A stretch of 44,582 nt of DNA from Streblomastix strix (GCA_008636045.1 SNRW01000013.1:1-44582), one strand, 5' to 3'; shown: positions 3,738 to 43,045, counted from the first letter of the stretch. The notes: generated by a model from the sequence alone, not told the origin. Translations and numbers: made by a program.

Positions 3738-3816
<79 letters not shown>

Positions 3817-9800: not shown

Positions 9801-11005
9801 GTATGAATAACTTGAGGAGATTCTTGAACGATTAAGAGTTCACTATTTTTCAGCTTTTAAAAGAAACATTTATAATGTATGAAATTTTATAATTAATTAA
9901 TAATAAATTTCTTTATTTATTATCATAGCTTATATCTGGAGTAGAGATAATAGGTAATCCGATTGGTCTAGTTTAAAGTTTAGGAAGTGGTGTTTATGAT
10001 CTATTTTCAGAAACAGCCAAGGGATTCGAAGGAGGACTTTATGGATTTACAGGTGGCTTATTGAATGGAGGATAAAAAATGATAAATAAAACCATATATT
10101 CTGTGAGTGATACAATTACGCGCATTTCATCATCGATTTCAAAAGGTATTTCGGTTGTTACTTTTGATAATGATGAAAGACTTGAAATAGATCAACATGG
10201 AAACAAAAGACTGGTTTCTGAAAGGAGAGTAGATACAAGAGGTCAAGAACCTCAAAATCCTGCTGAAGGTTTGGGAAAGGGAATTCATGCATTCGGAATG
10301 GATGTTTGGAAAGGAGTGAGTGGAGTTGTATAGAAACCAATAGAAGGACTTGAGCGATAAGGAGTATCTGGATTAGTTAAAGGAATTGGATAAGGGTTGC
10401 TGGGATTAGCTTTATAACCAATCAATGGAACACTAAAATTAGCAACAAAAACATTTGAAGGAGTAAGAAATATGACAGGGGAAAGGAGAGATGTAGTGAG
10501 TTGGATTAGATAAATTCGATACATTGGTTCATCTCATGTTATTTAGCCATTCAATGCGTTGCATGCTGAAGGATTTACATGGACTTTAAGTGCAACAGAC
10601 TTACTTCAAGGAGAGGACATACGAGGTCACAGTCTTGTTAGGCGCACAGATCTGCGTGTAATTGTTGTAACCAGCTTGCGCATTATGTATCTTGGCGAAG
10701 TATGGGGATCGGGGGGACAGTTTGAATTGCGCTGGGAATTTCCTATATCTGCAGTACGAAATGTAGAAATTGAAGGCTTAGATATTGCATTAATCATCAA
10801 TGTACATTCGATCGAAAGATAAACTAATGGTTAAAAAGATCAGATCGGACGCTATGATGGTATAAGCAATCCATAATTTAATACTGATCTATTAACTCAT
10901 AATTTCAGAGATCAGTAGCGAGTATTGATCCGCGTTGATGATGCTTCAGTATCAAGACGGACAAAGCTTATGCTGGAAAAGGTGATAAGCTCAAAATCTT
11001 TTTGA
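1..11005 (+). CDS. VPS13: VPS13-family bulk lipid-transfer protein, 5'-partial; exons <1..9876 and 9929..11005 (about 3,650 aa in window; TAA/TAG=Gln)
   Basis: Frame 1 stays open wherever spot-checked if TAA/TAG are read as Gln. VAB/SHR-BD-type repeat motifs are present (FYSPYWIINQTGIELIY ~6160, TIVISHRFQFINK ~6785, KWSGAIHIDNV ~7100, PPFVIRNKT ~7897). The spliced C-terminus reads HYFSAFKRNIYN|LISGVEIIGNPIGLVQSLGSGVYDLFSETAKG...GLGKGIHAFGMDVWKGVSGVVQKPIEG...GLVKGIGQGLLGLALQPING, typical of the VPS13 C-terminal/ATG2_C glycine-rich helices, followed by a PH-like segment (VIVVTSLRIMYL...LRWEFPISAV). Ends at TGA 11003-11005. Confidence 0.9.
3742..3816 (+). repeat. (AAT)25 coding microsatellite = poly-Asn tract in VPS13
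   Basis: Perfect AAT array in phase with VPS13 frame 1. Confidence 0.9.
9877..9928 (+). other. 52-nt spliceosomal intron in VPS13
   Basis: GTATGA...TCATAG boundaries and very AT-rich interior. Removing it joins frame 1 to frame 2 and restores the conserved VPS13 motif IYN-LISGVEIIGNP. Confidence 0.85.
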
Positions 11006-12342: not shown

Positions 12343-12348
12343 TTTGTC
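12343..12348 (+). repeat. Target-site duplication TTTGTC (left; right copy 31823-31828)
   Basis: Left flank ...GAATCTTGT-TTTGTC and right flank TTTGTC-ATGATTATAC... rejoin to match the paralogous empty site GAATCTTAT-TTTGTC-ATGATTATAC at 39307-39331. Confidence 0.92.
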
Positions 12349-12625
12349 AATAATATAGCTAGGACGTCAATAGGGTATTTCATTTTTTTCCAGTGTTTTG
12401 CTCATTTTTCATTGAATTTCTGTGTTATTTGCTAAAGATGTTACAATTTTGAGCCTTTGAATTTTGAGCTAGTCTGAAATTTTTGGCCTTCAGTTTACGA
12501 TAACGGATTTTGAGCGAGCATTTTCATCGCAAACGAATTTTTAGCGTTTCGCATTTTTGATAGGGTAATTCATAAAAAAGCGATGTTTTGATAATTTTGA
12601 TGTGAATTTGTTCGTTAATATTATC
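12349..12625 (+). repeat. Left terminal inverted repeat (277 bp)
   Basis: Reverse complement of 31546-31822, with about 8 substitutions counted by eye. Begins AATAATATAGCTAGGACGTC. Confidence 0.95.
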
Positions 12626-12869
12626 GGTGCAGCTCAAAATTTAGCTCTTAAATCTGTTTGAAGCCGAAATTTTCGAGATTTAGTTTCATTTTAGTATTTG
12701 CGTGTTTTAGAGCTGTAATGTAAGATAATTTTAATGTAATGTATATAAAATGCATGAAAATAATATTGTCATCCATTATTTGCACTATCAAATAATACTA
12801 GCATATTCATACTTGATCCGATTTTCTGAGCCAAAATAAAAATAACTTTTCAAATCCTACATTAATTAC

Positions 12870-12980
12870 CGATCTTGATCTGATCTGATCATGATCGGAT
12901 CTACAACCTCCCCAAATTTATTTTTTAAAATTTTTTTATGTCCAGAATTCGATCTCGATCTCGATCTCGATCTTGATCCG
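12870..12980. repeat. Subterminal clusters of GATC-core short repeats
   Basis: GATCTTGATCTGATCTGATCATGATCGGATC (~12871-12901) and TCGATCTCGATCTCGATCTCGATCTTGATCC (~12949-12979). Confidence 0.75.
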
Positions 12981-13008
12981 GCGGTTTAAAACTAATTTTA
13001 GAAAAATT

Positions 13009-13081
13009 TGCCACTTATCGGTGTCGAACCTAAAACATTAAAATTTACGATGCAAACTCATGTCCACAGAGCTATTAAAGC
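13009..13081 (-). ncRNA. tRNA-like RNA polymerase III cassette (pseudo-tRNA / candidate viral small RNA)
   Basis: Minus strand reads GCTTTAA TA GCTC TGTGGACAT GAGT T TGCAT CGTAAAT TTTAA TGTT TTAGG TTCGACA CCGAT AAGTGGC A, 73 nt with tRNA spacing. It has an A-box-like TAGCTCTGTGG, a B box GGTTCGACACC and a paired D-stem, followed by a TTTTT terminator. Acceptor, anticodon and T stems pair poorly. Confidence 0.5.
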
Positions 13082-13114
13082 TAACACAAAAATAATATTT
13101 ATATATATTTATAA

Positions 13115-13525
13115 TCATTTTTGACAGAAAATTGATTTACTATTTAAAAATTCTGGTCTTCGTTTTTTTATTGAATTCCAATTATCAAATTCTTCCTAAG
13201 TCATATCATCATTTTTGTCTTTTGACATCAAATAATAAAATTCCCAATAATCTTACCAATATTATTAAAATTCTGATCTTTTTTCGTAAGGAACAAGCAT
13301 TTTTGGTTCAAGAAGATCAATATATATATTATATTGTATTGATTTTGGTAATTGCTTTATAAATTACGTTTATTATCTCATGTATGAATCTCTTTTCCTC
13401 TTAATTTCTTCTAAATCTACATAAGAATCATATTTAAGATGATTTTCAATTTCTGCAACTATGGAAATTTTATTGCTTGTCGACGATGTTGAAGTTGAAG
13501 TCATTTCTTTTTGGTTGTCTTTCAT
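13115..13525 (-). CDS. Viral hypothetical protein, 136 aa
   Basis: ATG-to-TGA ORF under TAR=Gln (MKDNQKEMTSTSTSSTSNKISIVAEIENHLKYD...QQYWQDYWEFYYLMSK...), divergent from pPolB. Confidence 0.65.
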
Positions 13526-13717
13526 AGAAAATTAAAATGTTTAATTAAATAAATAAGTTTAATTAAATAAATTAAATAATTTAATAAAAAATAAATTAAA
13601 TAATTTAATAATTAATTATTATTTTATTAAATTATTAAATTATATCTTAGTTAAAAATCTTTTTCGAGATCATTTTAATTTTAATTAAACCCACTCATAA
13701 TTTCAAAAATTGTTTCG

Positions 13718-16700
13718 ATGACACGAAATTATACTCGATAATAAGTGAATGAAATTGGTAGATTATTTGGACATAATTATTCAAGAGTTAATTTATAAGC
13801 TGGTTAATTCTTAATATAAGGCTTGTTTTAAGAGTATGGCGTTGATGAACCATATGATTACTCCCCTGAATTGATTTAGAAAATTATTGATGCAGTAAAA
13901 TTAAAGCAACAATAAGAAAAATAAAGACAGTAAAAATTACTTGATGATTTTTATGAATGGTCTAATTAAGTAACTTTAGAATAGTTAGGATTGAAATAAC
14001 CATCAAAAGAGATTCCTTAGGAGATTCCTTAGGAAAAAACTTAGGAAAAAGAAAAAGAGATTCCTTAGAAAAAGCATTAGAGAAAAACCTCATTAGAATT
14101 AAGAATTGAAGAACATAATAAATAAATTGAAGATTTACCTGATGAATTTTTTGAAAATTTTACCAAGCATGGCGTAAGTTAGATGGAAAAAGATTTACCA
14201 AAAGAATATGATAATCTATAAGTTGTTGTTAAATAACCAATTGCTAAATAAAAAGTAAAAATAAATGAATAACCATAAAAATAAAAAACTAAGATTTAAA
14301 TTTAATATCCAGTTTATAGATCTGATTTATCACCATAATTTGTTAATGAATAATTGAGAAGACTAGGTAAATAAACCGATGATCTCTCAAATTAAGCAGC
14401 TTTAGAATTGTTATCGTTATAATTATAAACATTAAACTACGATGATTCTAAATTATCAACTGAAGCTAGAATTAGAGCGTTTTTAGATAACTCTATTCCG
14501 GATTAACATTAAGAACAAGATTTGAATTTCTTATAACCATTAACATCAGAAGCAATTTCAGATATTCGTGATAGAATTGATAATCCAAAAAATAATAGTG
14601 AAATTAGAATATAAAAGGAATAACTTAATGAAAAATACAAGAAGATTCACTAAGAATTTAATGATATTCTTGAAGAATAACTGCAAACTTTTAAGATGGC
14701 TGATGAAGAAATAATAGCAGAAACATATAATTTTAATGATAAAGAACTAAAATAAATAGAAATTGAAGGCTTAATTGAAGAATAAGATAAATCACTTTTA
14801 TTAACTGAGCCAGTTAATTTATTGTAATTTTTATAATGTTTGAGATAAGCAAGAAGATAACATCCACAGCAATTAAAAGAAATTAAAGGAAAAATTGATT
14901 AAGACGGAAATGAACCTACTCATACATATATAAACAATTAAATAACTTCATTGGATGATATTCATAGATTTATTAAAGAAGTTTTTGAAAAAGAAAAAGA
15001 AAATCATTTTAAAATTGCTGTTGATTTCGGATATATACAAGAATATTAAGATGTAACTCCTGAAGGAGAATAAATATTAGAATATGACTCAAAATTTCCA
15101 AGAAAAAATTTAACACCATTGAATATTAAATCGCTTATTACAAGTTAAGAAGATATGGATACTTACGATAAATACATAGAAACAATAATAATCAATAATT
15201 AAGAACGAACTGAAGAATCTACAAAACATCATTTCATAGCAGTATTTTCAATGATTGTTATAGCTTATCGTATTCCATTTGCAGGTAAAGCTATTCCTGA
15301 GTTATAGAAATTTATTAAACGACGTGAAGTACATTTCGTTGAATCTCCATATCCAAATAATTGTTTCTTTGAAGCTTTATCATATTTATCAATGCCTGAT
15401 TCGAAAACTAATCGTTATAGATCTTAAAATAGAGTTGCTGAAGGAATTAGATTAATAATTTAATATTACAGCTTATCTGGCAATTCTGCTAAATGTAGAG
15501 ATGTTTAAAATTTTCTTGCTGATTTAAAGGATTTGATTTAGCTGCTGATGGTAAGAATATTGCAAAAAGAATGAATATAAATATCTGTGTCTATGCGTTT
15601 AAAGAAGATGAATAAGGTAACTCATTCTACTTAGATCATGTAATAAAATCATTTAATTATATCTTAGATGAAAATGAAACTCAAGTATAAGAGCAAGATC
15701 CACAAAATTTTAATATATTACTTCTTTAATTCTAAAATCAAGCTCATATATTATATGTTTCTGATCCAGAAGCATTAACCGGTTATAGATATTGTCCAAT
15801 ATGTAAGCTTCATGGTATTAAAATAAAAGATAAGAACTGTAATTCTGCGAGAGATTTTGAAAGACATGTTGAGAAATGTAAGTTAAATAAAGGCAAGCAA
15901 GTTCTACTATCATCATCTCAAATTCCATTTGCTCCACATATTTACGGTAATTAAACTTATATGCATCTATTAGCTAATGAAATGATTGATAAATTTAAAC
16001 CTACTCAATATTATATCACATATGATTTTGAGACTGTTGAGCGAAATATTAATAAATACTTTGGTAAAAAGAAGGATGAAAAGAATGATGCAGGTTAATA
16101 AATAAGTAATTCATTCTAAAACTCAATACTTGAACCATTATCAGTTGCAACTACAATTAAATCTAAATCTGGAATTAGAACAATCTATTACGATTTACGT
16201 TAAGGCCCAAGTTTTATAGAAAAATGGTTAGAAGAAGTATTTAAAGCTGCTGAATAAATTAAATAAGACAATAGTTATAATGATCCAGAAGTTCCTTATG
16301 AAATTCCTGTTCCAGTTGTTGGTTTTAATTCTGCACACTTTGATATGATATTTGTATTACCATATCTTACAAATAAAGATTGGCACATAGTTTAAGGTGG
16401 ATATCTTGGTGATTTCTCACATATTAAGCGAGTAGAAGTTAGACATAAAATAAGCAATGTAAAAATATAATTCTTAGATATTGGTATGTTTATGACTAAA
16501 ATGTCATTAAAAGAAGCTGCTGAATCATTCGGTGATGGAAATAAACAAGATTTGAAAGGAATATTTCAATATACAGAATTCAACTACGATAATTTTAATG
16601 AAGTGCTATCAAAATCCGAACCATTTGCTTAAACTGATTTCCTAAACTTACTCAAAGAATAAACATTATCTGATAAAGATTACTAAATTTATCTCGAAGA

Positions 16701-18885
16701 TAGCAAAAATTTTAAAACAAGATGGGAATATCTGAAGTATTATAATGAATAAGATACAAAAATTATGATAAAACCTATTGATAAACTAATTTAAATGAAT
16801 TTTAATAATGGTATTGATATGTTTAACTATGTTTCTATGGCAAGTTGTGCAAATGCTATCAAATATAAGATTGCTTGTGATGATTTCGATTTAAATGCTC
16901 GTTATGAAAATAAATCTGACACTTCTCTTATAAATTATTAGACATTCAATTTAACTGAATAATATTGGGGTATTAAAGTATAAAATTATAAAAAATAAGA
17001 TATTAAAGCTGGTAGAGATGTTTCAAATAACGTGAATTAGTCAGATTATGTGTATTTCAAATAATAACTTGAAAAAGGCTCTTGTTGGTATTGTTAAGCA
17101 AGATTTACTAAAACTAATCTTCCAACACTTGATAGAATCGATAATAAACTTGGTCATTCAAAAGATAACGTAAGATTAGCATGTTAATATTGTAATGTTG
17201 CAAGAGCTAATAGAGATGATAAAATATTTCGATTAAAAATATAACTTAAAAGATATTATTAAGCAAAACAATTGCCTATGCCATTAACAGATGAAGATAC
17301 ATATCATGAATTAAGAAACGGAATTACAGGTGGATTAGCTAATGCTTTTCATAGATATAATATTTCAGGAACAACTCATATAAATAAATTGAAATTATCG
17401 GAAAATAAAGTTGTTAGTTATGATTTAGAACATATTATGACACATATTACAGGTTTTGATTTCAATTCATTGTATCCATCTGTTTACAGTGGACTTTAAC
17501 ATGAATTTATTAGATATACTGGTCATTAAATGTATATGCCTGGCTATGAATTACTTAGAATTAATTGTGTAACTGAAAAATAAAAACAATTAGGATTAAA
17601 TATTATTGATAATTAATTAAGATTCTCTTTACAAAAATCTGACGTAGATAAAGTAACAATGTTCGTAGCATCTGTTAAAGGTCAAATCGACGAAGAATAT
17701 CTTAATGATTTTATTAATTGTCCACCAATAATTAGGAAATATAAATATAAATGCTTGGAATCTGTGATTGGTAAACTGATGTATGAGCATTAATTGAAAA
17801 ATAATTTACCAAAAGATAGAGATGAATGCAAATTAACTGTATTATTATCAACAATGGGTGAATACATGGATTTCTATTCATATTACTTATGGTTTCTTAT
17901 TGATGATTGTCATTTCATAATTGATGATATCAAAAACATTAAAACTTTCTCAAAACATTTAGGATTTGCACCATTTGTTAAACATTTCAGTAAATAAAGG
18001 CTCACAGCAAAATTATCTAAGAATGCTGGATTAGATTAATATAGTAAAATAATTATGAACTCATCTTATGGTTCTGATGGTATGAATTAAGAACATTTTA
18101 CAGATGTTAAGATATGCGATAGAGATGAAACATTTAGAGCTCATTTATATGGCAAATTTAAATCGGATCGTAAGTTAGGCGATAATAATTATGCTGTGGA
18201 ATATGAAAAAGAAAAATTTAGTTGTAAAACTTGCATTTAAGTAGCATTTGCTGTATTAGATTGTTCTAAGTATTGGTTTATGAGTATTTATTACAATTTC
18301 CTTTGCAAATGTATTGATTAATAACGTTTTCATGTTGTTTACTGTGATACAGATTCAATGATGTGTGCTGTATCAGGTGATCCAAATTAAGATTATCGTT
18401 AAGGATTCTCTGCAATAATTAATGAATAAAAAGTTTATGATGAAAATTTCTACAAATTCTTCCCAGATCCTAATAAAGACATATATGATGAAAAGAAATT
18501 ACTTGGAGTTGCATATGAACATTGTGGAACAACTATGATTGCATTAGCACCTAAGAATTATTGGTTAGATTAACCATTTGATAAGAAAGAACCTGAAGTA
18601 ATTAAATTGAAAGGATTAAATTTAAAACTCAATCCACAAATTAATAAGGAAGCATACATATAAAATTTCAAAGAAGGAACTGTAGTATAAGGTAAAAATA
18701 AATCATTAAGATAACATATAGAGCATAACTAGTAAAATGAAATACTTAGTCGAATGAGTAGAGTTGAAACATTTAAGAATGGTATTACAGGAACTCATAC
18801 AAAAATGATATGCTTAGCAAATGGATGTTGTTGTCCGTATGTTTACTAATTATCAGCAGATAACTATAGTGTTGAAAATCTATGA
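13718..18885 (+). CDS. polB: Protein-primed family B DNA polymerase with long N-terminal (terminal-protein/vOTU-like) region, Zn finger and inserted HNH-like domain; one -1 frameshift at ~15523-15529
   Basis: Frame 2 runs 13718-15574 (…PNNCFFEALSY…). Frame 1 runs from ~15523 to TGA 18883-18885 and contains FKGFDL…ININICVY…AHILYV, CPIC…H…C, Exo I YDFET, Exo II GFNSAHFD, Exo III YNEQD, CWYC…TLDRIDNKLGHSKDNVRLACQYCN, GITGG, Pol A DFNSLYPS, Pol B KIIMNSSYG, Pol C YCDTDS, APKNY and KLKG. Confidence 0.93.
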
Positions 18886-18930
18886 TAATAGTAAATAATC
18901 ATTTAATTTTATTTTTGATTTAATTCAAAC

Positions 18931-20349
18931 ATGTCTTTCAATTAGGATGATTTTGGTGTTCCACGTAAAGGTGGTCATTTCTTAAGAAAACCTTAAAAAC
19001 GAACAGAAGAAGAAATTCTATAAGATATTTTGAGTAGATATTCTGATGATACTGATGAAAATCAAAGATAAAATGAAGTTGGTAAATAAAGATTTATTGA
19101 AGGTATGGCAGATCTAATGAATCTAGGAATTAAAGAAATACTTGATAAAAATAAATCATTAAATTTTGAAGATTTCATTGAAAAATTAAATATACATGAA
19201 TCGTATGAAGAATTACCAGTTATGAGTAAATTTGCAAATTTTATCAAAATCGGAGGTAAATCATTAATTAATTGGTTTAATGAATATGTTGATATATTAG
19301 TTGCTAGAGGATAAAGAAGAAAACATATTGGAGAAGATATTAATGAAGGTAGAAGATAATTAAGATAAATTGTGGAATTTCCATTCAAATCAAAGTTAAA
19401 ATTATTTGAAAGAGCAAATTAAATTAAATTGCGACCATAAATTGATATCGATGAAAGAATAAATGTTCCTGATTATCAAATCAAATAATTATGCAAGAAA
19501 TTTGGAAGACCTTACTTTTCACAATACACAGGTTCATGGGAAATTGATTTAGTATTCTCGATGAATCCATTAATAAAACACGTTAGTTAAATATATTTAT
19601 TCTGCATTAACATTAATACTAAATATCTTGTTGTATATCCTATACGTGAAAAAACAGCAGATGAAATTCTCAATGCATTAATAATTTTAACAAGAAATTT
19701 CAAAGTAAATTATATCAGAGGTGATGGTGAAAGAGGATTTACAGCAGCAAAGTTAATAGAATTTTATAGGAGTAATTAGAATTCTTTAATTCACAGTTTC
19801 TTCATTAGTAATGCCGCTGCACCATTTACAAATCATAATGGAGTAGTTGATTCAGTTATAAGAACTATAAGAAATGCATTCGGATTAGATGAAAGAGCAT
19901 TTGCAAACAACAATTTAATGCAATAGATGGTTGAAATTTATAATAAAACTCCTCATAGTGCATTCAATAACTACTTTACTCCAAAGTAAGTCAATTAAGA
20001 TGAAGATCTTGAAGAAATATTCATAAGAAAACATAATAAATAATTATAAGAATAAAAGAAAATTTAAGTGCTTGAAGGATTGCATAATTTTTAGCCTGGA
20101 AATATTTTAATGATTCATGTTGATTATTCTCGTACATCACATTCATTTGCAAAATAAAGAAGAAATTTTAATGAATTAGCAGAATTTGTTAGTTATGTTC
20201 ATGGAAATGTTTGTTGTAACCTATTAAGGCCATTTAAAGAATTACGTAGGATTGAGATTCAAATATATTACTGTAAATATGTTTGCAAAAATATTGAAGA
20301 ATTATTTACACCTAAATTTAAAGATTATCGATAAGTATTCTTAATTTGA
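18931..20349 (+). CDS. Retroviral-like (rve) integrase, 472 aa
   Basis: GSWEIDLVF…YLFCININTKYLVVYPIREKTADEI…YIRGDGERGF…NHNGVVDSVIRTIR…MVEIYNKTPHSA…TP is the pattern of Polinton-type integrase cores. Consistent with the 6-bp TSD. Confidence 0.88.
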
Positions 20350-20417
20350 AAATTTTCATTTAATAATTTTTTATTTATTTTTTAATTTATTAATTTTTAT
20401 TTATTATCAAATTACGT

Positions 20418-20804
20418 ATGCAAAAAGAAGAAATTTAAGAATTAATTATTTAAACTTTGGATGAATTATAGCCTCAATTATTTAAAAAAGATGATGATTA
20501 AGTCAGTAAAGTTAGCACTCGTGGAAGAAAACGTAAATATTAATCTTAAGAAGAAGCAAAAGAAAGTTAAAAATAATAGAGTAAAATAAATGCTGCAAAA
20601 GCATCATTAAATAAAAAATTCTTTAAAACTCATGCAACAGATTCATAATAATAATTAATTAAGAGACTTCAAAAAATAATATTAAATAATGACGTTTTGA
20701 TATAAATACATGATATTGTTGATTAATACGATGAAAATATAATTAAATTAAAGAATGTTATTGCTTAAAGCTAAGAAATTTCATAAGATGAAGAATAAAA
20801 ATGA
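20418..20804 (+). CDS. Viral hypothetical basic/coiled-coil protein, 128 aa, possible DNA-binding
   Basis: ATG-to-TGA ORF containing TRGRKRKYQSQEEAKESQK (AT-hook/NLS-like basic motif followed by a helix). Confidence 0.7.
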
Positions 20805-20861
20805 AGTTAAAACTTTTTCTTATCAGTACTCATTGCATTCGCGCTCTAAAGAGTATATTTT

Positions 20862-22151
20862 TCAATCGTCATCAGTTTCATCAGTTTAACTTCCACTTCC
20901 ACCTTTCTTAGTTACCTTTTAATCTCCAAATATTTCTAATGCTGCTTCTTATTCATTTAATACTTTACTATCAATTTTTACTCTTTCTCCCGGTCGTTCT
21001 AGTTCTTCCATATCTCTTTACATAGCTTGCTAATGAGTAAGTATATTAATAGCTTATTCATATGAATATGTTGTTTATCCAAAATTGACTTCGAATGTTA
21101 ATTCATTTCTTTTCGTTCTTGCCCATTATACTTCAGCTGCAATTAAATCATATAGATCTCCTAATTCTGATAGTGGCTTACCTGAATATAATTAGTTAAA
21201 TACATTTATTGCAAGCTTATTTATTGCATTATATTTTTTCCTTGTATCTGGAGTACGATACAATTTGAAATAATCTGTATCCCTAAAAGCTGCTTTAGAT
21301 TAATCATTAGCATTCATAGCAGCAAAATATCCAATAAATTTCTTCTTCCAAATATATGGTGCACATTTTAAGTAAGTCATCTGTTATCTTAATCGTGTTT
21401 ATTGATCTGCTTATTTATTTATTACATGACCCAAACTCTTAAGCACAATTTATACAGCTTTATTGAATAGTTATTTACCAATTGCTGCAGGAATTAACGG
21501 TCTAATTGATTCATCATACCAAGTACCATAGTTATGTTCTCTTCTATTAGCTTTTTTAGGATATGCACCATAATATTAGTTCAATAAGAATCTTTATTTA
21601 GGTTCAACAGCACGATAACCATCAATAGAGTAAAATCCTGAAGGATTAGTTACAATAACATTATTAGGAGTATTAATATCTCTATCAAGATCTTCTGATT
21701 TAACTTTCCTTCCTTTTTCTTACAAACCTCTATCAGTAATCCAATTTGCAGCACTTTCTACATTAACTAATGCTTTTACTCTTTTAATATCTTTTGCTAA
21801 TTTGCCAACTAAAGTTAATAAAGCTGGTCCAGCTTAATCAGCTAATACTCTAGCTTATGCTTATCGTTATACAGCAAATCCACCTTATCTTCTCATAATT
21901 TCGTCAAAACTGACATTAGTTCTTGGTCTTTAAGGTTTACGAGCGTCTCTAATAATTCCTATATATCTTCCTTAATTCTTTATTACTGCTGGCAGATATT
22001 AATCATCTTTATATTATTCCTAATATGCTTTACGTCTACGAATTTCTTAAATGAGATCACTTGTTGGAATTTATGATGAGCTTGATGATGAGCTTGATGA
22101 TGAAGGTTATTATAAGAAGGCTCTTGAAGATATTAGTTCAGATCCATACAT
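20862..22151 (-). CDS. Viral hypothetical protein, ~429 aa (alternative in-frame ATG at 22181); possible core protein
   Basis: Long open frame under TAR=Gln (MYGSELISSRAFLQQPSSSSSSSSSQ…EDLDRDINTPNNVIVTNPSGFYSIDGYR…) ending at TGA; Arg/Lys-rich N-terminal half. Confidence 0.75.
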
Positions 22152-22225
22152 TGATTCTTTACGTAAAAGATAAAACTTCATATGAGTTCATTAATTGCAA
22201 ATGAAATGTTCAATTTAATTTTAGA

Positions 22226-22882
22226 ATGAACCAAATAATTAGAAATATGGATGAAAATCACGAGTTAAAGCAATCAGTTTAATCCGCATGGACGAACACT
22301 AAATAAATTAATGTGAGTTAAGTTTTAAGATCGTCGTCACCAAGTTAAGCATCTTTATAAACATTAGTTTCACCAAGAGCTATATAAACTATAGTTGAAG
22401 TTAAATCACCATTCGAAAAAGATCCTCAACCTATTTAAATTTCATCTCGAAGAAGATCATCAATATTTGAAGAAACAATAACTCCAGATCCAACAGTTTG
22501 TAAATGGTTATTAGATATCATAAGTGAAGATGAACATATGATTAAAGAATCAGCTCATTTCATTTTATCATAGCCTTAATTGACTCGTGTTGTTGCATAT
22601 ACTTATGAAGTTCCTGAAAGTTAAGTTGAAATACTTGTTGAAGATGAAACTTGTTGTAGCAAATTCTGTAATGACGGAACTGTAACAGTAACTGATATTG
22701 CAATTTCAAATGTAAATATCTTAACGTTAGACACAGATAAAGCAAATTTATTGAGAGATTCTTATAAAATATGTCTGTAAAAAGTTAGAAAAATATCATC
22801 AATATTAGATTTAGGAGAGATTTCATCAAGAATTATGCGAGCAGTATCATCAGGATTGATGTAAGTTTTATCTAAGGTATGA
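22226..22882 (+). CDS. Viral hypothetical protein, 218 aa
   Basis: ATG-to-TGA ORF with a Ser/Pro-rich N-terminal half and an ETCCSKFC motif. Confidence 0.7.
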
Positions 22883-22931
22883 TCATAATAATAGATAATA
22901 AATTTATTTTTGTTGAAAACACCGAATTAAA

Positions 22932-25829
22932 ATGCTTGACGGGGACTTACATATGTTAGATGTTGTCTTGAAACATGATGAGACATTATTTGGATCGAAT
23001 CGTACAAATACTATTGGAATTGTGGAATAAATTACAAATATCAATAATTAAATCAATATGATTAATAACGCACCTGCACCTGATGTATATACAAGAACTG
23101 AAGCAATTGAGTTATTTGATAACAAAGCCGACAAAACTGATCTTGATGAATATTACAGTAAATCTGAAACTTATGCTAAAGTTGAAGTCTATAATAAAAC
23201 AGAAGCTGATGAATTTCTTGATGAAAAAGCTAATGTTGGCACTTCATACTCTAAATCAGAAGATGATTCATTGCTATTATTGAAAGCTGACAAAACTTAG
23301 TTAATAGATTCATATTCAAAATCAGAAGATGATGCATTGCTATTACTGAAAGCTGACAAAACTGAGTTAATTGATTCATACTCTAAATCAGAAGATGATG
23401 CATTGCTATTATTGAAAGCTGACAAAACTGATTTTGATGAATATTACACAGCTGGATAGGTTGATGAAATGCTTGATGAAAAAGCTGACAAAACGTAATT
23501 GATTGATTCATATTCAAAATCTGAAGATGATGCATTATTATTATTGAAAGCAGATAAAACTCAATTGATAGATTCATACTCTAAATCGGAGGATGATGCA
23601 TTACTAAATAATAAAGCTGATATTGGAGTTTCTTATACAAAAGGTGAAGATGATGCATTATTATTATTAAAAGCTGATAAAACTTAATTGATTGATTCAT
23701 ACACAAAAACAGAAACAGATACCAAATTAGCTTTGAAAGCAGATTAATCAACAACTTACACAAAATCTGAAGATGATGCGCTATTATTAGCAAAAGCTGA
23801 CAAAACAGACTTAGAAAACTTTGTAGATCTGTCTTCAGCTCAAACAATAACAGGACAAAAATAATTTGGAATAGTTAGTGTATCTAGCATATCAAAACTT
23901 ACTAAAAATGATGCATCAATTCTTCTCGCTGGTGGTGGTGATATGCTTGTAAGTAGTTTAGTTACATAACCATAATTATAAGAAGTCAGAGATATTGCAT
24001 CAGGAAGATCAAAAGGTCATGTATTCGATACATTATAAGATTTAAATGATTGGATGGCTATTCCTGATAATGTTGCAACTCTTGTTATTGGAGATAATTT
24101 ATATATAATTGATTCATAAGTTACAGATTATTGGTGGGATGGAACTTAACTTAGAGAATTAGAAACTTAACTGCCAGATTTAACTAATGTTGTAACAACA
24201 CTTGGTGAAGCAACTGGAAGTGGAAATGCAATAACTGATCTATAAATTGATGGAAATATATTGACTCCAGCTAAAAATAAAAATTTCATTGATTTGGAAT
24301 ACAATCAGACGATAACTGGCTAAAAAACATTCACAACAACTATTCATTCTGTTGGTATTACTTATTTAGATTACGATAATTCTAATGTAATTTTAGCTGG
24401 TGGTGGAGTTAGAGCAATTGCTGATATTTAAGGTGCTTCATACACAAAGGCATAAGATGATGCGTTACTATTACTTAAAGCTGACAAAACATAACTGATA
24501 GATTCATACAGCAAAACAGAAACAGATACTAAATTAGGTTTGAAAGCAGATTAATCAACAACATATACAAAATCAGAAGATGATGCGTTATTGTTATTGA
24601 AAGCTGATAAAACTTAACTAATAGATTCATACAGCAAAACTGAAACAGATAACTTATTGAATGATAAAGCAAATCAATCAACAACTTACACGAAATCAGA
24701 AGATGATGCATTGTTATTGTTGAAAGCTGATAAAACATAAATAATAGATTCATATACAAAATCGTAAGATGATGCGTTATTGTTATTGAAAGCTGATAAG
24801 ACTCAATTAATCGATTCATACACTAAAACTGAAACAAATAATCTCTTAAATAATAAAGCAAATCAATCAACAACATACACCAAAACAGAAACCGATAACT
24901 TAATAGCATAGATTGATGTTGCAGATGTTGATTTGAGCAGCTATTACACGAAAACTAAAACTGATGAATTATTAGGTGAGAATGCATATACAACTGATCT
25001 AGAAAATTATGTTACATTAGGCACTTAATAGGTAATAACTGCAAATAAAACTTTTCAGAATCCATGTAGATTCACAAGTTCAATTGATGGAACGGGAACA
25101 ATTACTGGATCATCATTTGTCAAATCAGGTGCTGATGATAGCGTTGTATTACTTGGAGCAGGAGGTACTAAGCCAATATCTGAATTTGGTGGAAGCGTTG
25201 ATGATTCGAATTATGTGAAGAAAACGGGATAAGAGCTTTAATTAATTCATGGGGTATTACGAAGAGATGATGATGAGGTATCAATGTTAGAGTATGATGA
25301 AGATTATTTGACAAGATTAGAAGTTGACAGAAAACTAACAAATTATGTTAATAAAACAACAACGCAAACAATTGCAGGATCAAAGACTTTTTCTAGTAAT
25401 GTTACTGCTTCGGGATTTGCAAAAACAAGTAAAGATGATACGTCTGTTCTATTAGCAGGTGGAGGTGACATGTTGATATCAGCATTTGGAGGGGCTGAAG
25501 ATATTACTTCGACAGTTTCTAGTTATGGAGCTAATATGGTATTTACAAACACTACATTTATCAAAATTGGGAAATTGAGACTATTCAGAGGCACAGTTCA
25601 TCCATATAATAATATTTCTGCATCTTCATCGGATAGTGTAGTGTCATTAAGTTTTTTAAATCATCCTGCTTCAGATACTCCATTAATTGTTGCAAGAGAT
25701 ACAACTAATTCAATAAAAATGTATGTATCAGCAAGCAATTCAACAATATACGTTAATACTACCACTTCTTCATGGGCTAATACACTCGAAATAACAATAT
25801 ATGGTTGGTGGATTGCGCCATAAGGTTGA
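22932..25829 (+). CDS. Phage-tail-fibre-like repeat protein (putative virion fibre), 965 aa
   Basis: Two arrays of 19/22-aa repeats (SYSKSEDDALLLLKADKTQLID; 57/66-bp period). Four QT/VIxxxKx/TF units, each followed by a (I/V)LLAGGG-like motif. A C-terminal beta-rich tip ends ITIYGWWIAPQG. Confidence 0.75.
23244..23810 (+). repeat. Coding tandem repeat array 1 of the fibre gene (66/57-bp units)
   Basis: TCATACTCTAAATCAGAAGATGAT… recurs at 23244, 23310, 23376 and onward. A second array lies at ~24438-24900. Confidence 0.85.
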
Positions 25830-25883
25830 TATCTCTGATGCAATGAAAACGTTAATTAAATATTTATTTTTGTTTATGATCAA

Positions 25884-27515
25884 ATGACAGTATATATTGA
25901 CGAAAAATTACTTGAAGCTGCTGGATTAACTAATTTTCCAGAGTTATATGCTTATATTAAAGAACAAGAACCAAAATCAAGTGAAGAATAGCCATAACTT
26001 GTTCCAATAGGTGAATAAACGTTATAAGAATAAGTTAAATAGAATGCTGCAATAATTAATGATGAAAATAATGAATTTATACCTCCACTAGTTGAAAATG
26101 TATAACCTAAAGTTGATTTATAAGATTAACTTGAGTTAGCAGAAGGTTGTACATGGTTGGTTAATTAATAAATGTAATAATTGAGTGTTTCAAAAAAGAA
26201 AGTTACTTACAATTTCTCATTAAAAACAACAAAATATTTTCATGGATATATATTTGAAAATTGGCCTGAATAAGCAAAACCAAGAATTGAAGATAAAATT
26301 ATTATAATAGTAGGATCAGATTCATTGTAGAAAAATAATATATTCGGATATATTGATTAAAATGGTCCTTATATTTCATTAGATGGAGATGAAGATATAT
26401 AATCTGGTATTACTATTATTTTATCAGGCACTTATTATACAGAATATACACCAATTAAACAAGCTTTACATGATAGCAACAATGATAATAAATTAGACAT
26501 ATAAGATACATGGAATGAAATTGCTAAAGGAGGAGAATATAAGACATAATCTTGGGTGTATGAAATTGTAAAGCATTAATCAGATGTACTTGAATAGAAA
26601 TCATTAGGACCAGAATCTGCAAAATATAATTGGTTAAGTAGCAATTTATTAATTGATCCAGTTTCAATATATGGTCCTGATAGAGCAATGTTTTATTTGA
26701 TTGATGGACCTCAAATCACATTTAATTTTAAGTCTAATGTTAGTGATAATTCATTAAATTACTATAAAGTTTTTCAAAAGATTAATCCAAGATTGCTTAC
26801 ATAAAAAACTAAATATTTTACTGTACATCCTTGTTAATATGAATTCTATGCTCATATGGATGTGAAACCTAACGGAGATGCCGATATATTTAATAAAAAT
26901 AAGATGGAAGTGAAATTCAATGGTTAACCTGGTAATAGAGATGTAGAATTTGCTGGTACATATATTAATGATACTTATGTAAATCCTGAATCAACAGATC
27001 CTTAAGCTGATAATAAAGCTAAATCAAAAATAGATGAAGTAATAGTACAACATGATAGTAAAATTGGAAGAGCACCATTATTTACTGATTATACAATAAC
27101 TGATTTAATGGATTAGGTTCAATTTGCTGATTATTTTAGAAATGGATAGATTGAAATAATTAATGAAGGTTATTCTCCACCAACAATAATAAAAGATAGT
27201 ACATTATATCGAGTAAATGACGGAGTGAATAATTTAATTGTATTCAATTTTTATATTGAATAACTAGATAATAATAATGTAAGCTCTAATTTAATGCTTT
27301 GTTGGTTACCTGATGAAATTGTTCCATTAACTAATAAATATTTCCCTTCATCATGCTATATAACTGTACCAGCATAATCATATTTTGATAAGAGATCATC
27401 AAGTTATGCAAAGATAGATTCTGGTGATAAAGGGCTATATATTCATCTAAGTGATCCTGTACAAGATACTAAAAGAGGTAGAGTTTATTACATAAGTGGA
27501 AGTTATTACATTTGA
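25884..27515 (+). CDS. Viral protein with three tandem beta-rich receptor-binding-like domains, 543 aa
   Basis: ATG-to-TGA ORF with three internally similar segments (VTYNFSL…NWPEQAKP…ILSGTYY; ITFNFK…INPRLLT…EFAGTYI; IVFNFY…WLPDEIVP…YISGSYYI). Function is inferred. Confidence 0.65.
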
Positions 27516-27632
27516 GCTCATTGTATTCGTACTCTACTAACTATGTTAGCGCTCTAAAGAGTAAAGAGATTACAGTAATTATTCATGAAGTTAATATTTT
27601 TGTTAAACCGAAACAAGAATACAATTAAAAAG

Positions 27633-27944
27633 ATGGCCGTAGGTTTGTTTCATAAAATAAAACAATTAGCATCAAAAGTTGGCAAAGGATTATAATGGGT
27701 AAATGAAAAAGTTGTAAAGCCGGTAGTTCTTCCAGCAATGAAGTAATTTAGTGGTATAATTCCTGGTGGAGGATTAATTAGAAAAGGAATAGAAACAGGT
27801 TCATCTGCACTTGATGCATTCTATGGATAAGGTTCATAATAAGACTTCAAAGAAAAATATAATGATTTATTAGATGATCCATACTTAAGAAATTTACCGA
27901 TTGATTAACTAAGTAGATTAATAAAACTTAGAGGCAATTAATGA
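27633..27944 (+). CDS. Small protein (103 aa) with N-terminal cationic amphipathic helix; candidate membrane-penetration/internal virion protein
   Basis: MAVGLFHKIKQLASKVGKGLQWVNEKVVKPVVLPAMKQFSGIIPGGGLIRKG…, located directly upstream of the putative MCP. Confidence 0.7.
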
Positions 27945-28015
27945 ACATAAATATGAAACTTAAGAATGATTAATGACGAAGTTAAGAGATTATTTTTGTT
28001 CTTTCACAAATCAAC

Positions 28016-29729
28016 ATGAATCGTTTTCTAGCTAAAGCAATCTAAGTTCAAGGATTAAATACAATTGAATCTCAACTTGAATCAAATGCAGTGACACCGT
28101 TCAAAAATGATGGTGAACATCACTATTCAATTAAAGAAATTAAACCTGAAAGTTAGATGCCAGCATTATTTGATAAAGAAATTATTATAAGTTTATCTGA
28201 CAGTGATCATGATGTAACTTAGATACAAAATTCATTCTTATCAATTGTATTGACTGCAAATCTATAGTTCGATAATAAATTCGATTAATTTGATGATGCA
28301 TATAAGGATGGTGTAGTTTTATTTGTAGGATTGAAGTCAGGAAGTAATATAATTCGTGAATATACTGTTTATCATCGAGGAAGAACTATTGATGGAAGCT
28401 TATAGAATGATGCAACAAACTGAATCATTCATTTATAACACTATCAAGCCAAAATCAGAGAAAAATAACAGAAAACATATTCATTCGTTATATGAAAATA
28501 TCCATAAATTTGATACTTCAGCATGTGGAACTTATATAACTATGAGAGAAATTGAAGAAGCAATTGGAAATTAAACAAGTGTACCATATTTGATGCCAGT
28601 TAGATTCAGAATTTCAGTTCCTTTAGATGATATACTTATTTTCTCAGCATTTACAGATTATCCTAATGGAATGTTTGGAGATCTTAAGATTAAATTCAAA
28701 ATCAATCCAAATGCTTTCGTATTTGCTTAAGTTAATCCAACAGTATCACTAGCAAAATATTATACAATGAATAAAGATGAGTTATTGAGTTCAGGATAAT
28801 AAAAATTGATGGATATTGATCTCTTCTTCCGTAATTGGAGCTTAACATTCTAATATACGAAATAATTTACATAACTTGGATGTACAGCTGATTTAATAAC
28901 AAGTATCAAAACTGAAGAATTAACTCAAAGTGGTTTGAAGAATTTAATTTGCGATATTAATCCAGTTACGATTTCAATAAAAAATTACGTAGTAACTGAA
29001 GTTACAGCAAATATGGCTGGATATAAAGCAAATGATGCATGTTTGGCAAGAGTTAGAGATTTCTTTAGTACTAGAGCTTTTGTAGTTCCTGCATAAAGAG
29101 TTGAAATTTGGCCATTTCCAACTTCTGCAACACTTACAGGAATAAGAACTTCATAAAATATTCCATTATCTCATGTTACAGATTTTGTATTGCTATTTCC
29201 TAAAGATGCTAGAGCAACAACTTGCTTTGAAAATCCATGTTATTAAAATATGTAACTTACAACTTGTGGAAGAAATTTCCCAGATATGCCAATGAATACT
29301 ACTGATTAATAATTCTTCCAATTATAATTGAATGCTAGTAATTTAGATCTATTATTTGAAGCAACTGATGAATTTGAAGATGCATTAACTACACCTAGAA
29401 ATACTGCAACAAGAAGACTTAATCCACATACAGATTTAACCTCATTCATGATTTCATTGCAATGCGAGAGAAATAGTAATGGAACTCTAACTTTTGATGG
29501 ACTTGATACAATGAATTAGAATACATCTGTTGAATTAAGAGGTGCACCAATTTATTAAGGAATTACAGATAGTTATTATAATGTAGATACTAATGGAAAA
29601 CGACCTCCACCTCCAATTCTACGTACAGTTCATGATACATTCTGGTTATTTAGTCCTAATCAAGGTGGTTCAGCTCATTATGATACAACACATTCATTTG
29701 ATGAAGTTGTAGGAGAAATTGGAGCTTGA
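28016..29729 (+). CDS. Probable double-jelly-roll major capsid protein (~570 aa), interrupted by a 1-nt insertion at ~28417-28419
   Basis: Frame 2 runs from ATG 28016 to TGA 28421-28423 and continues in frame 3 to TGA 29727-29729; removing one A from GCAACAAACTGAA gives ATTESF. It is beta-rich, with strand patterns SNIIREYTVYHRGRTID and QNMQLTTCGRNFP in the two halves. Its size and position beside the penton-like gene and ATPase fit an MCP. Confidence 0.7.
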
Positions 29730-29828
29730 GAATGAAATTTACAAGCGACGAGCTTCGCAGTCTCTTGATTATAAATAATTAATTGAATAAATAAATAAAT
29801 TAATAAATTATTTTTATTTTTATATCAA

Positions 29829-30251
29829 ATGTAAGTTGCAGAAAATAAGAAACATTTCATTATAACTCGAGATCTTACATAAAATGAATAGCACTCATTC
29901 CAAAGAAGATTACAAGTAGATTTCGTAAATTCATAGAATGAAAGAAAAATAACGTTTATTTAATGTGTAGTTCCATGGAAAGTTAAGAAATATTTCTATG
30001 ATTTGAATTTACAAGAAGATGATGAAACAACTCCAATAGATCATATGAAGATATCATTTCATTCAACTTTAGTTCAAGAAGAATAATATAACGATTATTA
30101 TGTTGGTTAATGTGATGAATAAAGAGCTTAAAAAATATTTCCTCAAATGAATCGTAGACCTATGATTTACTTTTGGTTTAAGGATCAAGATGGAAAAGAT
30201 CTTGATGTAGAACATATGGATTTCATAATTGAATTACTGTTAGAATATTGA
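29829..30251 (+). CDS. Probable minor capsid (penton) protein, compact single jelly-roll, 140 aa
   Basis: The C-terminus IYFWFKDQDGKDLDVEHMDFIIELLLEY matches the 'hxhxhxDxxGxxhxh…hxhxLxh' ending typical of Polinton/virophage pentons. An internal ISFHSTLV is also present. Confidence 0.65.
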
Positions 30252-30403
30252 ATGAAATGTATATATGAGTTATTTTTCATTGAATGAAACATTGTGACAC
30301 ACTGTGACACGATATGTCTCGTATGATATTTGATAGCAGAGCTGGAAGTCGAACTAGAATACCTCAAAAACCAATCATTTAAAATGTACCAGAGATATAA
30401 ATA

Positions 30404-30712
30404 ATGGAGAAATTTAATCCAGATGTAATAATTTTTGACAATGTGAATGAATTTAAGTAATATTTAGCAATGAATAAGGAAGAAATGGAGAAAAAATCTA
30501 CGTTGAAACTAAATATGTAATATAAAATTAGAGATGGTTATAGAATTACTAGATTGAAAGGTATAATATCATTAAGACTATGGCCTAAGGAAATGAAGTT
30601 AGAAAAATAATCAGAAACTATTGAATAGATGCAGAATATAGATTAAAGATTGGAAAATTTAATAAATGCATTGTTAATTAAAAATATAATCACAGAAGAA
30701 GATTTAAACTGA
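30404..30712 (+). CDS. Viral hypothetical protein, 102 aa
   Basis: ATG-to-TGA ORF (MEKFNPDVIIFDNVNEFKQYL…YRITRLKGIISLRLWP…) with a C-terminal coiled coil; convergent with the ATPase. Confidence 0.7.
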
Positions 30713-30753
30713 AAATATAGATATTTACATGCAAACTTCGTTTTCATGAATTT

Positions 30754-31530
30754 TCACGATAAGATTTCAATTGTAGTTCCATCAATATTATATTTAACTA
30801 GTAATGCTTCTCTTTTTGGAAGTTATACATATTATTACCAGAGTTCTTCTTTAACAATTGGAATAGAAGATTAATAGAAGAACAAATTAAATTTTTATCT
30901 ATTAAATGCACCGAAGAAATAGATTGAATCAACATTTGATTTAATTGCAGCATCAAGACCAATAATATCTTACAAGCAAAGGAAATAAGTGATTCTTGGC
31001 TATCTATTTTTAAATAATTTCTTGAATAATGGACTCATTTTATTTTTGAATATAGACATTGCATCATCAAATAGTACGATTGTATGTGGAGATTTAATTT
31101 TAAAATCATTAGCACCAGTTTTATCTAATATACTTTAACGTGAATCTTATTCTAAATACTTATCAATTTTATGTTGTATTACTTAATCATATGCTTATTT
31201 TCCTTCAATTAATTCATCAAGAACACCATTTATTTCAGCATATGGTACGATTTTAGTTGGAATTTTAATCAAATGCTTCATTTTTTAATAAGTTTGGTCG
31301 TTATTAGTATCTGTAACATAAATAAATAGAGTATAACAATGAGATTTTAACTGACTCAGTTTAATTAATTCCCTGAAAACATTGTAAGTTTTACCGCTAC
31401 CTCGTTAACCAATCAATAAATTAATTGAATTGTAAGTAAAATTAAGCTCTTTATGAATTGAAGACTAAATATCATGCTTATCTTAATCAATATTCGATAA
31501 AAGTGCGTTTACGTGTCTAGTTAAAGCCAT
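30754..31530 (-). CDS. A32-like (FtsK/HerA superfamily) genome-packaging ATPase, 258 aa
   Basis: Walker A LLIGQRGSGKT, Walker B IVLFDD, then NRQPRITYFLCLQD (Arg finger plus conserved Gln) and IKSNVDSIYFF. Both motif Gln residues (GQRG, CLQD) are TAA-encoded. Confidence 0.92.
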
Positions 31531-31545
31531 TCTTATTTAATACGA

Positions 31546-31822
31546 GATAATATTAACGAACAAATTCACATCAAAATTATCAAAACATCGCTTTTTTATG
31601 AACTACCCTATCAAAATTGCGAAACGCTAAAAACTCGTTTGCGATGAAAATGCTCGCTCAAAATTCGTTATCGTAAACTGAAGGCCAAAAATTTCAGACT
31701 AGCACAAAACTCAAAGGCTCAAAATTGTAACATCTTTAGCAAATAACACAGAAATTCAGTGAAAAATGTGCAAAACACTGGAAAAAAATGAAATACCCTA
31801 TTGACGTCCTAGCTATATTATT
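31546..31822 (-). repeat. Right terminal inverted repeat (277 bp)
   Basis: Ends GACGTCCTAGCTATATTATT. Inverted copy of 12349-12625. Confidence 0.95.
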
Positions 31823-32099
31823 TTTGTCATGATTATACTTTATATATTATGGGGAAATAGATAGCTATATCTATCATAAATTATTGGACATTTTAATATT
31901 GCGAATATATTTAAGTGAGTAGACAAAAATTATGAAGTTAATATAACAAATTCAACATAAATAATTTGATCAATTAATTTTGGTAAAGTTAAATAGAGAA
32001 ATAATTATAATTGATACATAGAATGAATCGGATATATTCATTCACGTTAAGTAATTCGTCTATAAAGTTAAAGGGTTCAATTTTCATTTATTAAACTTA

Positions 32100-32870
32100 A
32101 ATATTTATTCTTTTCAGCGTTTGCAGTTAATGTATTAAATTAACGTACATTTTCTAATACTTAAGCTCTTATTTGTTCACTAACTATTCCATAAATCCCG
32201 CTAAATACACATAATAATGATACTTCCATAGATATTGGTTGAGGATAGTTATGAATAGTTAAATTCTTCAATCCATCAAGACGCACCTATGCAAATTCAT
32301 CATCCATTTTATCAATGGTTCCATCATTCGTAATCTATTATCCAAATATTCTTATTATTTTCAATTTCTCAAATTCCGCTTTTGGTATTTCAATATCAAC
32401 ATTCCATGATTCTAACATATCTCTTAGATTCGTTAAATGTGTCATGTTAGCCCAATCATTAATCGTTTCATATTTAAGTGTTTCTCTAACATTATTCTTT
32501 GTTTCTCGAATAGATGTGTTTGGACCAACAACACGATTTTATACAAGATCTATTTACATTGGATCATCTTCAAATTATTTATGCTTATACATTTATGCAA
32601 ATATATCAATTTCAATGCTATCCAATCCAATACATTTTATATATCAAATACTAGGTAGATGATATCCATTTTTATTATAATATACACGTAATCGTCCATG
32701 AGCTGTTTTAATTAATCCAACATTAGCAGATAAAATATTATCAGTTATTTTTTAGCGAATCTCATCAATCTTTTCTTTAAATAGATTCTTCTTAATATAG
32801 AAATCAATTACACATAAATTTCCATATTCTACAAATGTTAAATCGATTAATTTACCTGTAACTTAAGTAG
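32100..32870 (-). pseudogene. Decayed primase-polymerase (Prim-Pol/AEP-like) gene fragment
   Basis: VTGKLIDLTFVEYGNLCVIDFYI…NVGLIKTAHGRLRVY…QNRVVGPNTSIRETKNN…; homologous to 37328-39160, with degenerate catalytic motifs and no start. Confidence 0.7.
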
Positions 32871-33282
32871 TTATGTGAAAATGGAGAGTGCTTACACTGA
32901 AAAATAAAATAAAATAATGTAAAATTAATAATAATAATATTTAAATTATTTTATTCAAATGATGCAAAATTATAATTTTTTTTATTTTTTACATTTTCTA
33001 ATATAAATCAGCTGGTAAGAAAAAGAATTGAATCGTAATATAGCATACAACTGATATAAAATTACACATGTAAGAGTTTAATATATTATCTATTCGTAAT
33101 TGACTTTAACTACTTTATAATTACTCTAAACTCTTTAGTTATTCATAATAAATAGAATCTTATTTTATTTATAAACTTCAATTTATTAAAGATTCTTCTT
33201 CAAAATTGTGTGAAATATAATTATAAAGTTTATATTTTTATGAAAATAATATAGAATAATAATTATTAAATATTTATAAAAA

Positions 33283-33356
33283 AGCCCCCGGTGGGATTCG
33301 AACCCACAACCTTTTGATTACAAATCAAACGCAATATCCAACTATGCTACGGAGGC
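33283..33356 (-). tRNA. trnT: tRNA-Thr(UGU)
   Basis: GCCTCCG TA GCATAGTTGGATATTGC G TTTGA TT-TGT-AA TCAAA AGGTT GTGGG TTCGAAT CCCAC CGGGGGC T forms a full cloverleaf, followed by an oligo-T terminator. Confidence 0.95.
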
Positions 33357-33788
33357 TCTCATTAAACGCTGAGTTACATTCTTTGTTCTTTATATACTTA
33401 ATAGCCTTAATTTTCTCAATATTCTCATGCATAAGTTCTGCTCTAAGATAAAAAATAATTTTAATAAAATGATAAATTTCAATAATCTTTTTATTTTAAT
33501 TATTTTTTTGAATTTAAAATTTATAAGTATTATAGCCTGATATACACTATTGATTCTTAATATAATATATTTATTATATTGATTCCAATTCCATAAATAT
33601 TCAACCATATGTGTGGAAATTAAAGCTACAAATTAATTTAAAAATGTTGTAAATATTTATTCTATTTCTATTCATTCAATTGTTTTCTCAATTAAAAAAT
33701 TGGTAAAAATAAAAATAAACTCTCATATAATTTTAACTTTATTTATATATGCATATGTAGCATATATGTTGTATATCATAATAATATA

Positions 33789-35550: not shown

Positions 35551-35551
35551 A

Positions 35552-35847
35552 GTAGTAGGCAAAAGACACACATTGTCAAATAGAATTAAAACTTAAAAAT
35601 AATGAGAAAGTGTCGGTGCTGAAAATGATAAATAATAATGAAAAATGAAAAAATTTATGAATAAAATGAATGAAAATAGAAAAATAGAAAAGTATATATA
35701 AAAAAAATATGAGTAATTTATGAAAAAAGAAGAACAAAAAAGATAAATTGTAAGGGATTATGAAGATAATTTTTGATGATCAATAATGGGATAACTTTAT
35801 TTTTGAGATTAAATTACATTGGTCAATGTGTTTCTTTTGCCTACTAC
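35552..35847. mobile_element. MITE-like element (~300 bp) with ~30-bp TIRs, copy A
   Basis: GTAGTAGGCAAAAGACACACATTGTCAAAT (35552-35581) and ATTGGTCAATGTGTTTCTTTTGCCTACTAC (35818-35847) are inverted repeats around a non-coding A-rich interior. Confidence 0.7.
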
Positions 35848-43044: not shown

Positions 43045-43045
43045 A

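Follow-up and report, generated by a model that had tools for sequence, protein, structure and literature searches.

The closest described relatives of the element reported here are endogenous viral elements of the oxymonad Streblomastix strix. In the available portions of Bellas et al. 2023 (PMC10120064), the Metamonada capsid group is seeded by Trichomonas vaginalis and its S. strix members share the translation table of their host; S. strix contributes 820 capsid hits in one cluster, corresponding to about 11% of the genome according to a table, and its capsids are about 32% identical to those of Trichomonas. One S. strix capsid model is a double jelly roll with a Foldseek match to the Sputnik capsid (3j26, E 2.6e-12), and five S. 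strix contigs are drawn in Dataset S1 (PMC10120064). The S. strix elements of cluster MMPC_40 in that paper have the same capsid family, likely host and genetic code (TAA and TAG, together TAR, read as glutamine) as our element, and a Polinton-like virus in this code is already in print for the family and its likely host. The novelty claimed in an earlier note on this DNA is thus lost, host, capsid family and shared code all being found there. The available text of the MMPC_40 paper is silent on gene order, on repeats and target duplication, and on penton and fibre; a literature search, with subscription journals largely outside its coverage, brought up no paper that takes a full S. strix element as its subject and no account of the complete Metamonada-group gene map. 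The same note's 'undescribed group' is right in that the Metamonada elements are still ungrouped in the available part of a recent preprint (Bellas and Sommaruga 2026, 10.64898/2026.06.19.733378), but the group itself has been described (PMC10120064). Three further sources, taken together and in their accessible parts, place Trichomonas capsids outside the Polinton clade and record both giant viruses with recoded genomes and a virophage with an ochre tRNA (PMC13524828, PMC6905037, 10.64898/2026.10.13.758929).

The Mavericks of T. vaginalis, as far as the available sources describe them, belong to the same capsid group and are of the polymerase-plus-integrase type. T. vaginalis is a standard-code host, unlike that of the element. 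Resemblance to the Polintoviricetes (animal Mavericks/Polintons and adintoviruses) lies in a DNA polymerase B of the protein-primed kind (pPolB) with a likely terminal-protein and vOTU (TP-vOTU) front and an inserted homing endonuclease, and further in a likely retroviral-type (rve) integrase, an ATPase and terminal repeats; a 6-bp target duplication is typical of these viruses, as in the element. Unlike them, the element has no Ulp1/adenain protease pattern, and the Metamonada capsid, in the sources as available, lies outside the Polinton cluster, its group unplaced. Tetrahymena thermophila uses code 6, like the host of the element. The Tlr1 element integrated in its genome has both of the capsid genes besides an rve integrase and an ATPase (Yutin et al. 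2015, PMC4642659, available portions), with a helicase instead of the pPolB, and is an earlier case of such an element in a recoded host.

We describe here an element that is very probably an integrated, frameshifted copy of the published Metamonada-group family of Maverick/Polinton type, likely from S. strix, a protist of the termite gut, and read with TAR as glutamine. The suggestion that this is an endogenous Maverick/Polinton-type virus adapted to a recoded protist host is supported.

Element boundaries and insertion site

The element occupies positions 12349-31822 (19.5 kb) of a 44,582-nt stretch of DNA, the whole of which is referred to as the window. Its boundaries are as follows.

12343..12348: target duplication TTTGTC, left copy (6 bp; empty site near 39315)
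12349..12625: left terminal inverted repeat (277 nt; a run X3 contig has the same end)
31546..31822: right terminal inverted repeat (pairs with the left arm)
31823..31828: target duplication TTTGTC, right copy (6 bp)

The terminal repeats, the longest inverted repeat of the window, have 8 mismatches over 277 nt (97% identity), which rules out a chance origin. These repeats and the target duplication had been claimed before and are confirmed. A paralogous repeat near 39170-43650 provides the empty site: it runs uninterrupted and contains TTTGTC once (near 39315), so that the flanking DNA is continuous there and, by this control, the element is truly inserted. The window sequence is equally compatible with a duplication of 8 bp if the repeats are shortened by one base; however, a contig of run X3 matches the element exactly beginning at 12349 (from contig letter 208 on), favouring the 6-bp duplication. 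The element end in this contig suggests another insertion site.

The insertion point coincides with the start of one copy of a duplicated 4.3-kb block (31822-36162 and 39315-43655, 90% identity) that makes up the insertion context. Each block copy contains a tRNA-Thr(TGT) gene along with two kinds of decayed remnant: primase-like fragments, and a transposase-like frame with a zinc ribbon, which we take to be IS1595/Merlin-like and for which Pfam gave no informative match. A primase-like gene with an HGGLH motif lies at 37564-39242 and has two relatives in inverted orientation (32108-32865 and 39601-40346); the three copies are decayed, about 69% alike, possibly derived from another virus-like or transposable family, and the HGGLH gene has no Pfam match. 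An element of about 300 bp with 51-nt inverted ends starting (A)GTAGTAGGC is present at 35552-35847 and 43046, and in run X1 the same end motif recurs, as a loose end, at position 18448, suggesting that this small element also inserts into sibling polymerase genes. Just inside the left end of the viral element, the subterminal region 12810-12990 contains GATCTC/GATC tandem motifs and is perhaps a promoter or origin element.

Genetic code

Translation with code 6 yields 15 ATG-to-TGA frames corresponding to 13 tightly packed genes, which cover 90% of the element. This agrees in number with the 13 open genes of the earlier note, except that polymerase and capsid are not single open frames. Every gene contains internal TAR codons and all end in TGA; in-frame glutamine is encoded by 276 TAA and 43 TAG codons (319 TAR), against 71 CAA and 7 CAG (78 CAR). 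With table 11 there are just five ORFs of at least 80 aa within the element and the longest stretch per element frame is 22-193 aa, which bears out part of the earlier description of the genes as invisible to standard ORF calling; the phrase is nevertheless overstated, because public databases already contain proteins of the family, entered as hypothetical and translated with code 6. The glutamines of the GQRGSGKT and CLQD motifs of the ATPase are encoded by TAA, as had been noticed.

The reading of TAR as glutamine was upheld against distant relatives of the capsid protein. These were 64 representatives of 500-680 aa among 147 new capsid matches, all less than 50% identical to it, to which the two pieces of the capsid were aligned separately. 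Opposite the 22 TAR codons of the capsid gene the relatives have glutamine at 397 of 1270 residues (31%), compared with 3.6% at non-Gln codons, and at three TAR columns glutamine is present in 62, 56 and 47 of the 64 relatives. We disregard the corresponding count for S. strix paralogues, whose deposition under code 6 makes it circular.

VPS13 and nucleoside diphosphate kinase, the host genes on either side of the element, use the same code. The VPS13-like gene (385-11005) is very long and of low complexity, and contains a likely 52-nt GT-AG intron near 9878-9929; together with the shared code of the flanks, this intron rules out a bacterial origin. TCAA(A/C) stands directly before several viral start codons (18931, 25884, 28016 and 29829) and resembles the short initiator-type leaders of metamonads.

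The presence of internal TAR in every gene, conserved glutamine positions included, could be taken as a sign of selection, with the codons serving as an active barrier or a regulatory switch instead of being a product of drift under the host code. We regard this as very improbable: the TAR share of glutamine codons in the element (319/397, 80%) matches that of the larger VPS13 piece (304/372, 82%), the TAR codons are spread over gene classes while TGA ends all genes, and there is no tRNA gene within the element. The host-range barrier proposed in the earlier note holds as a logical one-way consequence of the 319 internal TAR codons, but selection for such a barrier finds no support in a TAR share so like that of the host gene.

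Predicted replication, integration and packaging genes

Four frames are assigned to these functions.

13718..15574, + strand: polymerase gene, 5' piece (ends past a frameshift near 15520)
15571..18885, + strand: protein-primed DNA polymerase B, 3' piece (inserted endonuclease VII/HNH domain)
18931..20349, + strand: likely retroviral-type integrase, 472 aa (acidic motifs EIDLV, RGDGE and VVDS)
30754..31530, - strand: P-loop ATPase, 258 aa (Walker A and B, downstream R and Q motifs)

The 3' piece of the polymerase has the catalytic motifs and matches Pfam DNA_pol_B_2 (PF03175, E 6.8e-9, above the cut-off), a PHROG DNA polymerase (1.3e-14) and a PHROG endonuclease VII (3.5e-11). The 5' piece, assigned by motif, likely comprises the region of the terminal protein together with half of a vOTU-like protease, namely the half with the Cys motif (NNCFF); the His motif of this protease sits across the polymerase break. 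The terminal-protein/vOTU domain order is borrowed from Krupovic et al. 2024 (10.1101/2024.03.18.585575), where, in the portions available, polintons have a TP-vOTU front and endonuclease insertions in the polymerase. A high-depth contig of run X1, seen also in X4, omits 1141 polymerase bases (16205-17347), which suggests that a variant of the family with this internal deletion is abundant.

The 472-aa protein is likely a retroviral-type integrase, as judged from its acidic motifs, the third acidic residue being D, and the target duplication fits this; the Pfam rve_3 match (E 0.045) is below the cut-off. The 258-aa protein matches Pfam ATPase_2 at 1e-4, below the cut-off, and a terminase PHROG at 5.5e-6, and is likely an A32-type packaging ATPase, with no A32-specific profile match in Pfam, PHROG or a PDB sequence search.

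Capsid and other genes

The remaining frames include the capsid gene, in two pieces, and candidates for other virion components.

13115..13525, - strand: 136-aa protein (Pfam and PHROG without match)
20418..20804, + strand: 128-aa basic/coiled protein (32% identical to a locus L004 ORF along 68 aa, pairwise E 5e-10)
20862..22181, - strand: 439-aa conserved family protein (18 of 18 homologues named S. strix)
22226..22882, + strand: 218-aa protein (no function assigned from Pfam or PHROG)
22932..25829, + strand: 965-aa repeat protein, likely virion fibre (18 KA[D/N] units)
25884..27515, + strand: 543-aa protein (two weakly similar domains of about 105 aa; putative receptor-binding role)
27633..27944, + strand: 103-aa protein (strongly amphipathic N-terminal helix; conserved upstream of sibling capsid genes)
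28016..28423, + strand: major capsid protein gene, 5' piece (98% to residues 1-134 of intact 570-aa P0001)
28392..29729, + strand: major capsid protein gene, 3' piece (after a frameshift near 28420; 96% to P0001)
29829..30251, + strand: penton (minor capsid) candidate, 140 aa (position after the capsid gene)
30314..30712, + strand: 132-aa protein (no function assigned from Pfam or PHROG)

The reference for both capsid pieces is P0001, an intact 570-aa S. strix capsid protein. The capsid of the element is predicted to be a double jelly roll from the published model of a family member; its profile retrieved nothing from PDB by sequence search. The 140-aa protein that follows has what we assume to be a penton-like C-terminal pattern and has one homologue of the same length (82% identity). 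AlphaFold with these two sequences gave a pLDDT of 33 and a PDB sequence search no match, so that the penton label given to this protein earlier is unconfirmed.

The 965-aa protein resembles phage tail fibres, with matches to phrog_5004 (unknown function, 3.9e-30), a tail fibre PHROG (9.9e-5) and the L-shaped tail fibre of PDB 8hqz (6.5e-5), and is likely a virion fibre. The 543-aa protein had been described as a triple receptor-binding-like protein. With hand-picked limits, two of its domains align weakly (z 3.5), as proposed, but the third is doubtful (z 1.9), AlphaFold of the protein alone gave a pLDDT of 31, and there was no database match, PDB sequence search included. The N-terminal helix of the 103-aa protein has a hydrophobic moment above that of 99.1% of 5495 other 18-mers, and a possible role as a membrane-penetration (entry) protein may be read from this. 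The 128-aa protein is possibly DNA-binding, and the 439-aa protein has no match in PDB or, as a window protein, in Pfam.

As previously noticed, there is no recognisable maturation protease: no Ulp1/adenain pattern or Pfam match was found in the 15 frames, five proteins of which are without assignment and could hide a very divergent one. The element departs in this from a strict definition of Polintoviricetes. Absence of the protease is normal for Polinton-like viruses, all of those studied by Yutin et al. 2015 lacking it according to the available portions of that paper (PMC4642659).

State of the copy

Two breaks interrupt the coding capacity of the element, one near 15520 in the polymerase gene and one near 28420 in the capsid gene, each a one-base shift in a short homopolymer. 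The copy, earlier described as full-length, is complete in its ends and repeats but is not intact. Two separate genes at each break are ruled out by the intact P0001 and by sibling contigs that keep the frame.

The nature of the shifts, and the finding that all four contigs over the polymerase break keep the frame (three of X1 and one of X2, with X3 and X4 lacking cover), raise the possibility that the copy is intact in the cell and that both frameshifts are errors of assembly or amplification; many breaks in such elements are assembly artefacts according to the available portions of Bellas et al. 2023 (PMC10120064). We consider this possible but somewhat improbable. The frame-keeping contigs carry other differences and, like P0001, are likely siblings of the element rather than the same copy; they concern the polymerase break, and the capsid break is without read cover. 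The host site is itself a decayed repeat, and the 3% divergence between the terminal repeats (8 of 277 positions) leans towards some age. Because the contigs and P0001 are likely siblings, decay and assembly error are not separable, and we treat the element as a frameshifted copy.

Differences among siblings were examined at 40 positions, the best supported of 852 variants and not a random draw from them: 38 are coding, two create stops, and 19 of the 38 are synonymous against 20% expected, so that the family seems to have been under selection in the past.

Family membership and history of recoding

A search with the capsid returned 265 proteins among 4262 candidates, and all 120 among the matches listed are named Streblomastix strix; the element capsid belongs to the MMPC_40 S. 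strix cluster of Metamonada-group elements. The capsid example folded by Bellas et al. 2023 matches, by eye, a 562-aa subgroup (PMC10120064, available portions). The TAA/TAG reading as glutamine is common to the S. strix members, and the protein-primed DNA polymerase B (its gene frameshifted), the terminal inverted repeats and the 6-bp duplication are those of Mavericks/Polintons. No locus was found in IMG/VR with this element's proteins and end, several of the back-translated patterns containing glutamine and so liable to miss TAR codons, nor was one found when metagenomes were scanned with the polymerase.

A quick, midpoint-rooted tree of 50 rows, without a labelled outgroup, was built from ten S. 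strix capsids and, of the 64 relatives, the first 40. The ten S. strix rows make up a single clade with an SH-aLRT of 100, and P0126 and P0133 group with it (99). P0126 leads to four loci, in all of which the capsid frame ends in TAA; its locus L001 and the relative L003 have no in-frame TAR codons, and 28 and 29 CAR codons, respectively. The nearest relative read out is thus standard-code, suggesting that recoding likely followed entry into the S. strix host, although the protein libraries probably under-represent code-6 relatives and bias nearest neighbours towards the standard code. One entry followed by drift is the simplest reading, because the TAR share matches that of the host gene. Beside the capsids of standard-code relatives lie a homologue of the 128-aa gene (L004) and a fibre-like segment (L002), and the fibre and the 128-aa gene are therefore not special to the recoded branch. 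These homologues, and the protease-free Polinton-like viruses in the available portions of PMC4642659, weigh against the atypical gene set of the earlier note.

Discussion

In the cycle that we envisage, the integrase would join the repeat-bounded linear DNA to the chromosome and create the 6-bp duplication; replication of an excised copy would start at its ends and be carried out by the protein-primed polymerase, with the terminal-protein part likely cut off by the polymerase's own vOTU-like domain, and the ATPase would fill a double jelly-roll capsid bearing penton and fibres. Translation of the element genes would need host ribosomes that read TAA and TAG as glutamine. The lineage likely entered its host once, from a standard-code ancestor; AT-biased drift would then have put TAR at glutamine positions, as in host genes, and this filling would have confined the virus to hosts with the same code. 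Intact siblings would supply polymerase and capsid to this copy, unless its frameshifts are assembly errors.

It is unlikely, in our estimation, that the family spreads only as an intragenomic self-synthesizing transposon whose capsid, penton and fibre genes are relics and which forms no particles. The capsid gene of this copy is broken, short, partial or fused forms are common among the sibling capsid proteins, and the IMG/VR scans gave no viral-contig locus, all as a transposon would have it. However, intact capsids of 562-570 aa are kept over 65-96% identity, the sibling penton candidate is of unchanged length, and many such breaks are assembly artefacts, as reported in the available part of PMC10120064.

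With the element taken as a viral copy of the Metamonada-group family, a broader proposal can be put forward tentatively, and we doubt that it holds in full: the Metamonada elements may be a deep, unclassified integrating double jelly-roll lineage whose distinct virion would combine a minimal penton of 140 aa with phage-like fibres and an amphipathic entry protein, and would lack a maturation protease. The S. strix branch would still form particles but, having entered once, would have been locked by its recoding into a single host lineage. If true, this would be a clean eukaryotic case of the genetic code closing the host range of a virus.

Added here to the published family are an end-to-end gene map with ends and empty site, the two breaks, and a standard-code neighbour. 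The map serves a virus group that specialists still cannot place, and the history is a testable one: the one recoded clade, which has expanded to hundreds of copies, counts a standard-code relative among its nearest neighbours. If particles are found, the family would provide a natural test of how host code limits a eukaryotic DNA virus.
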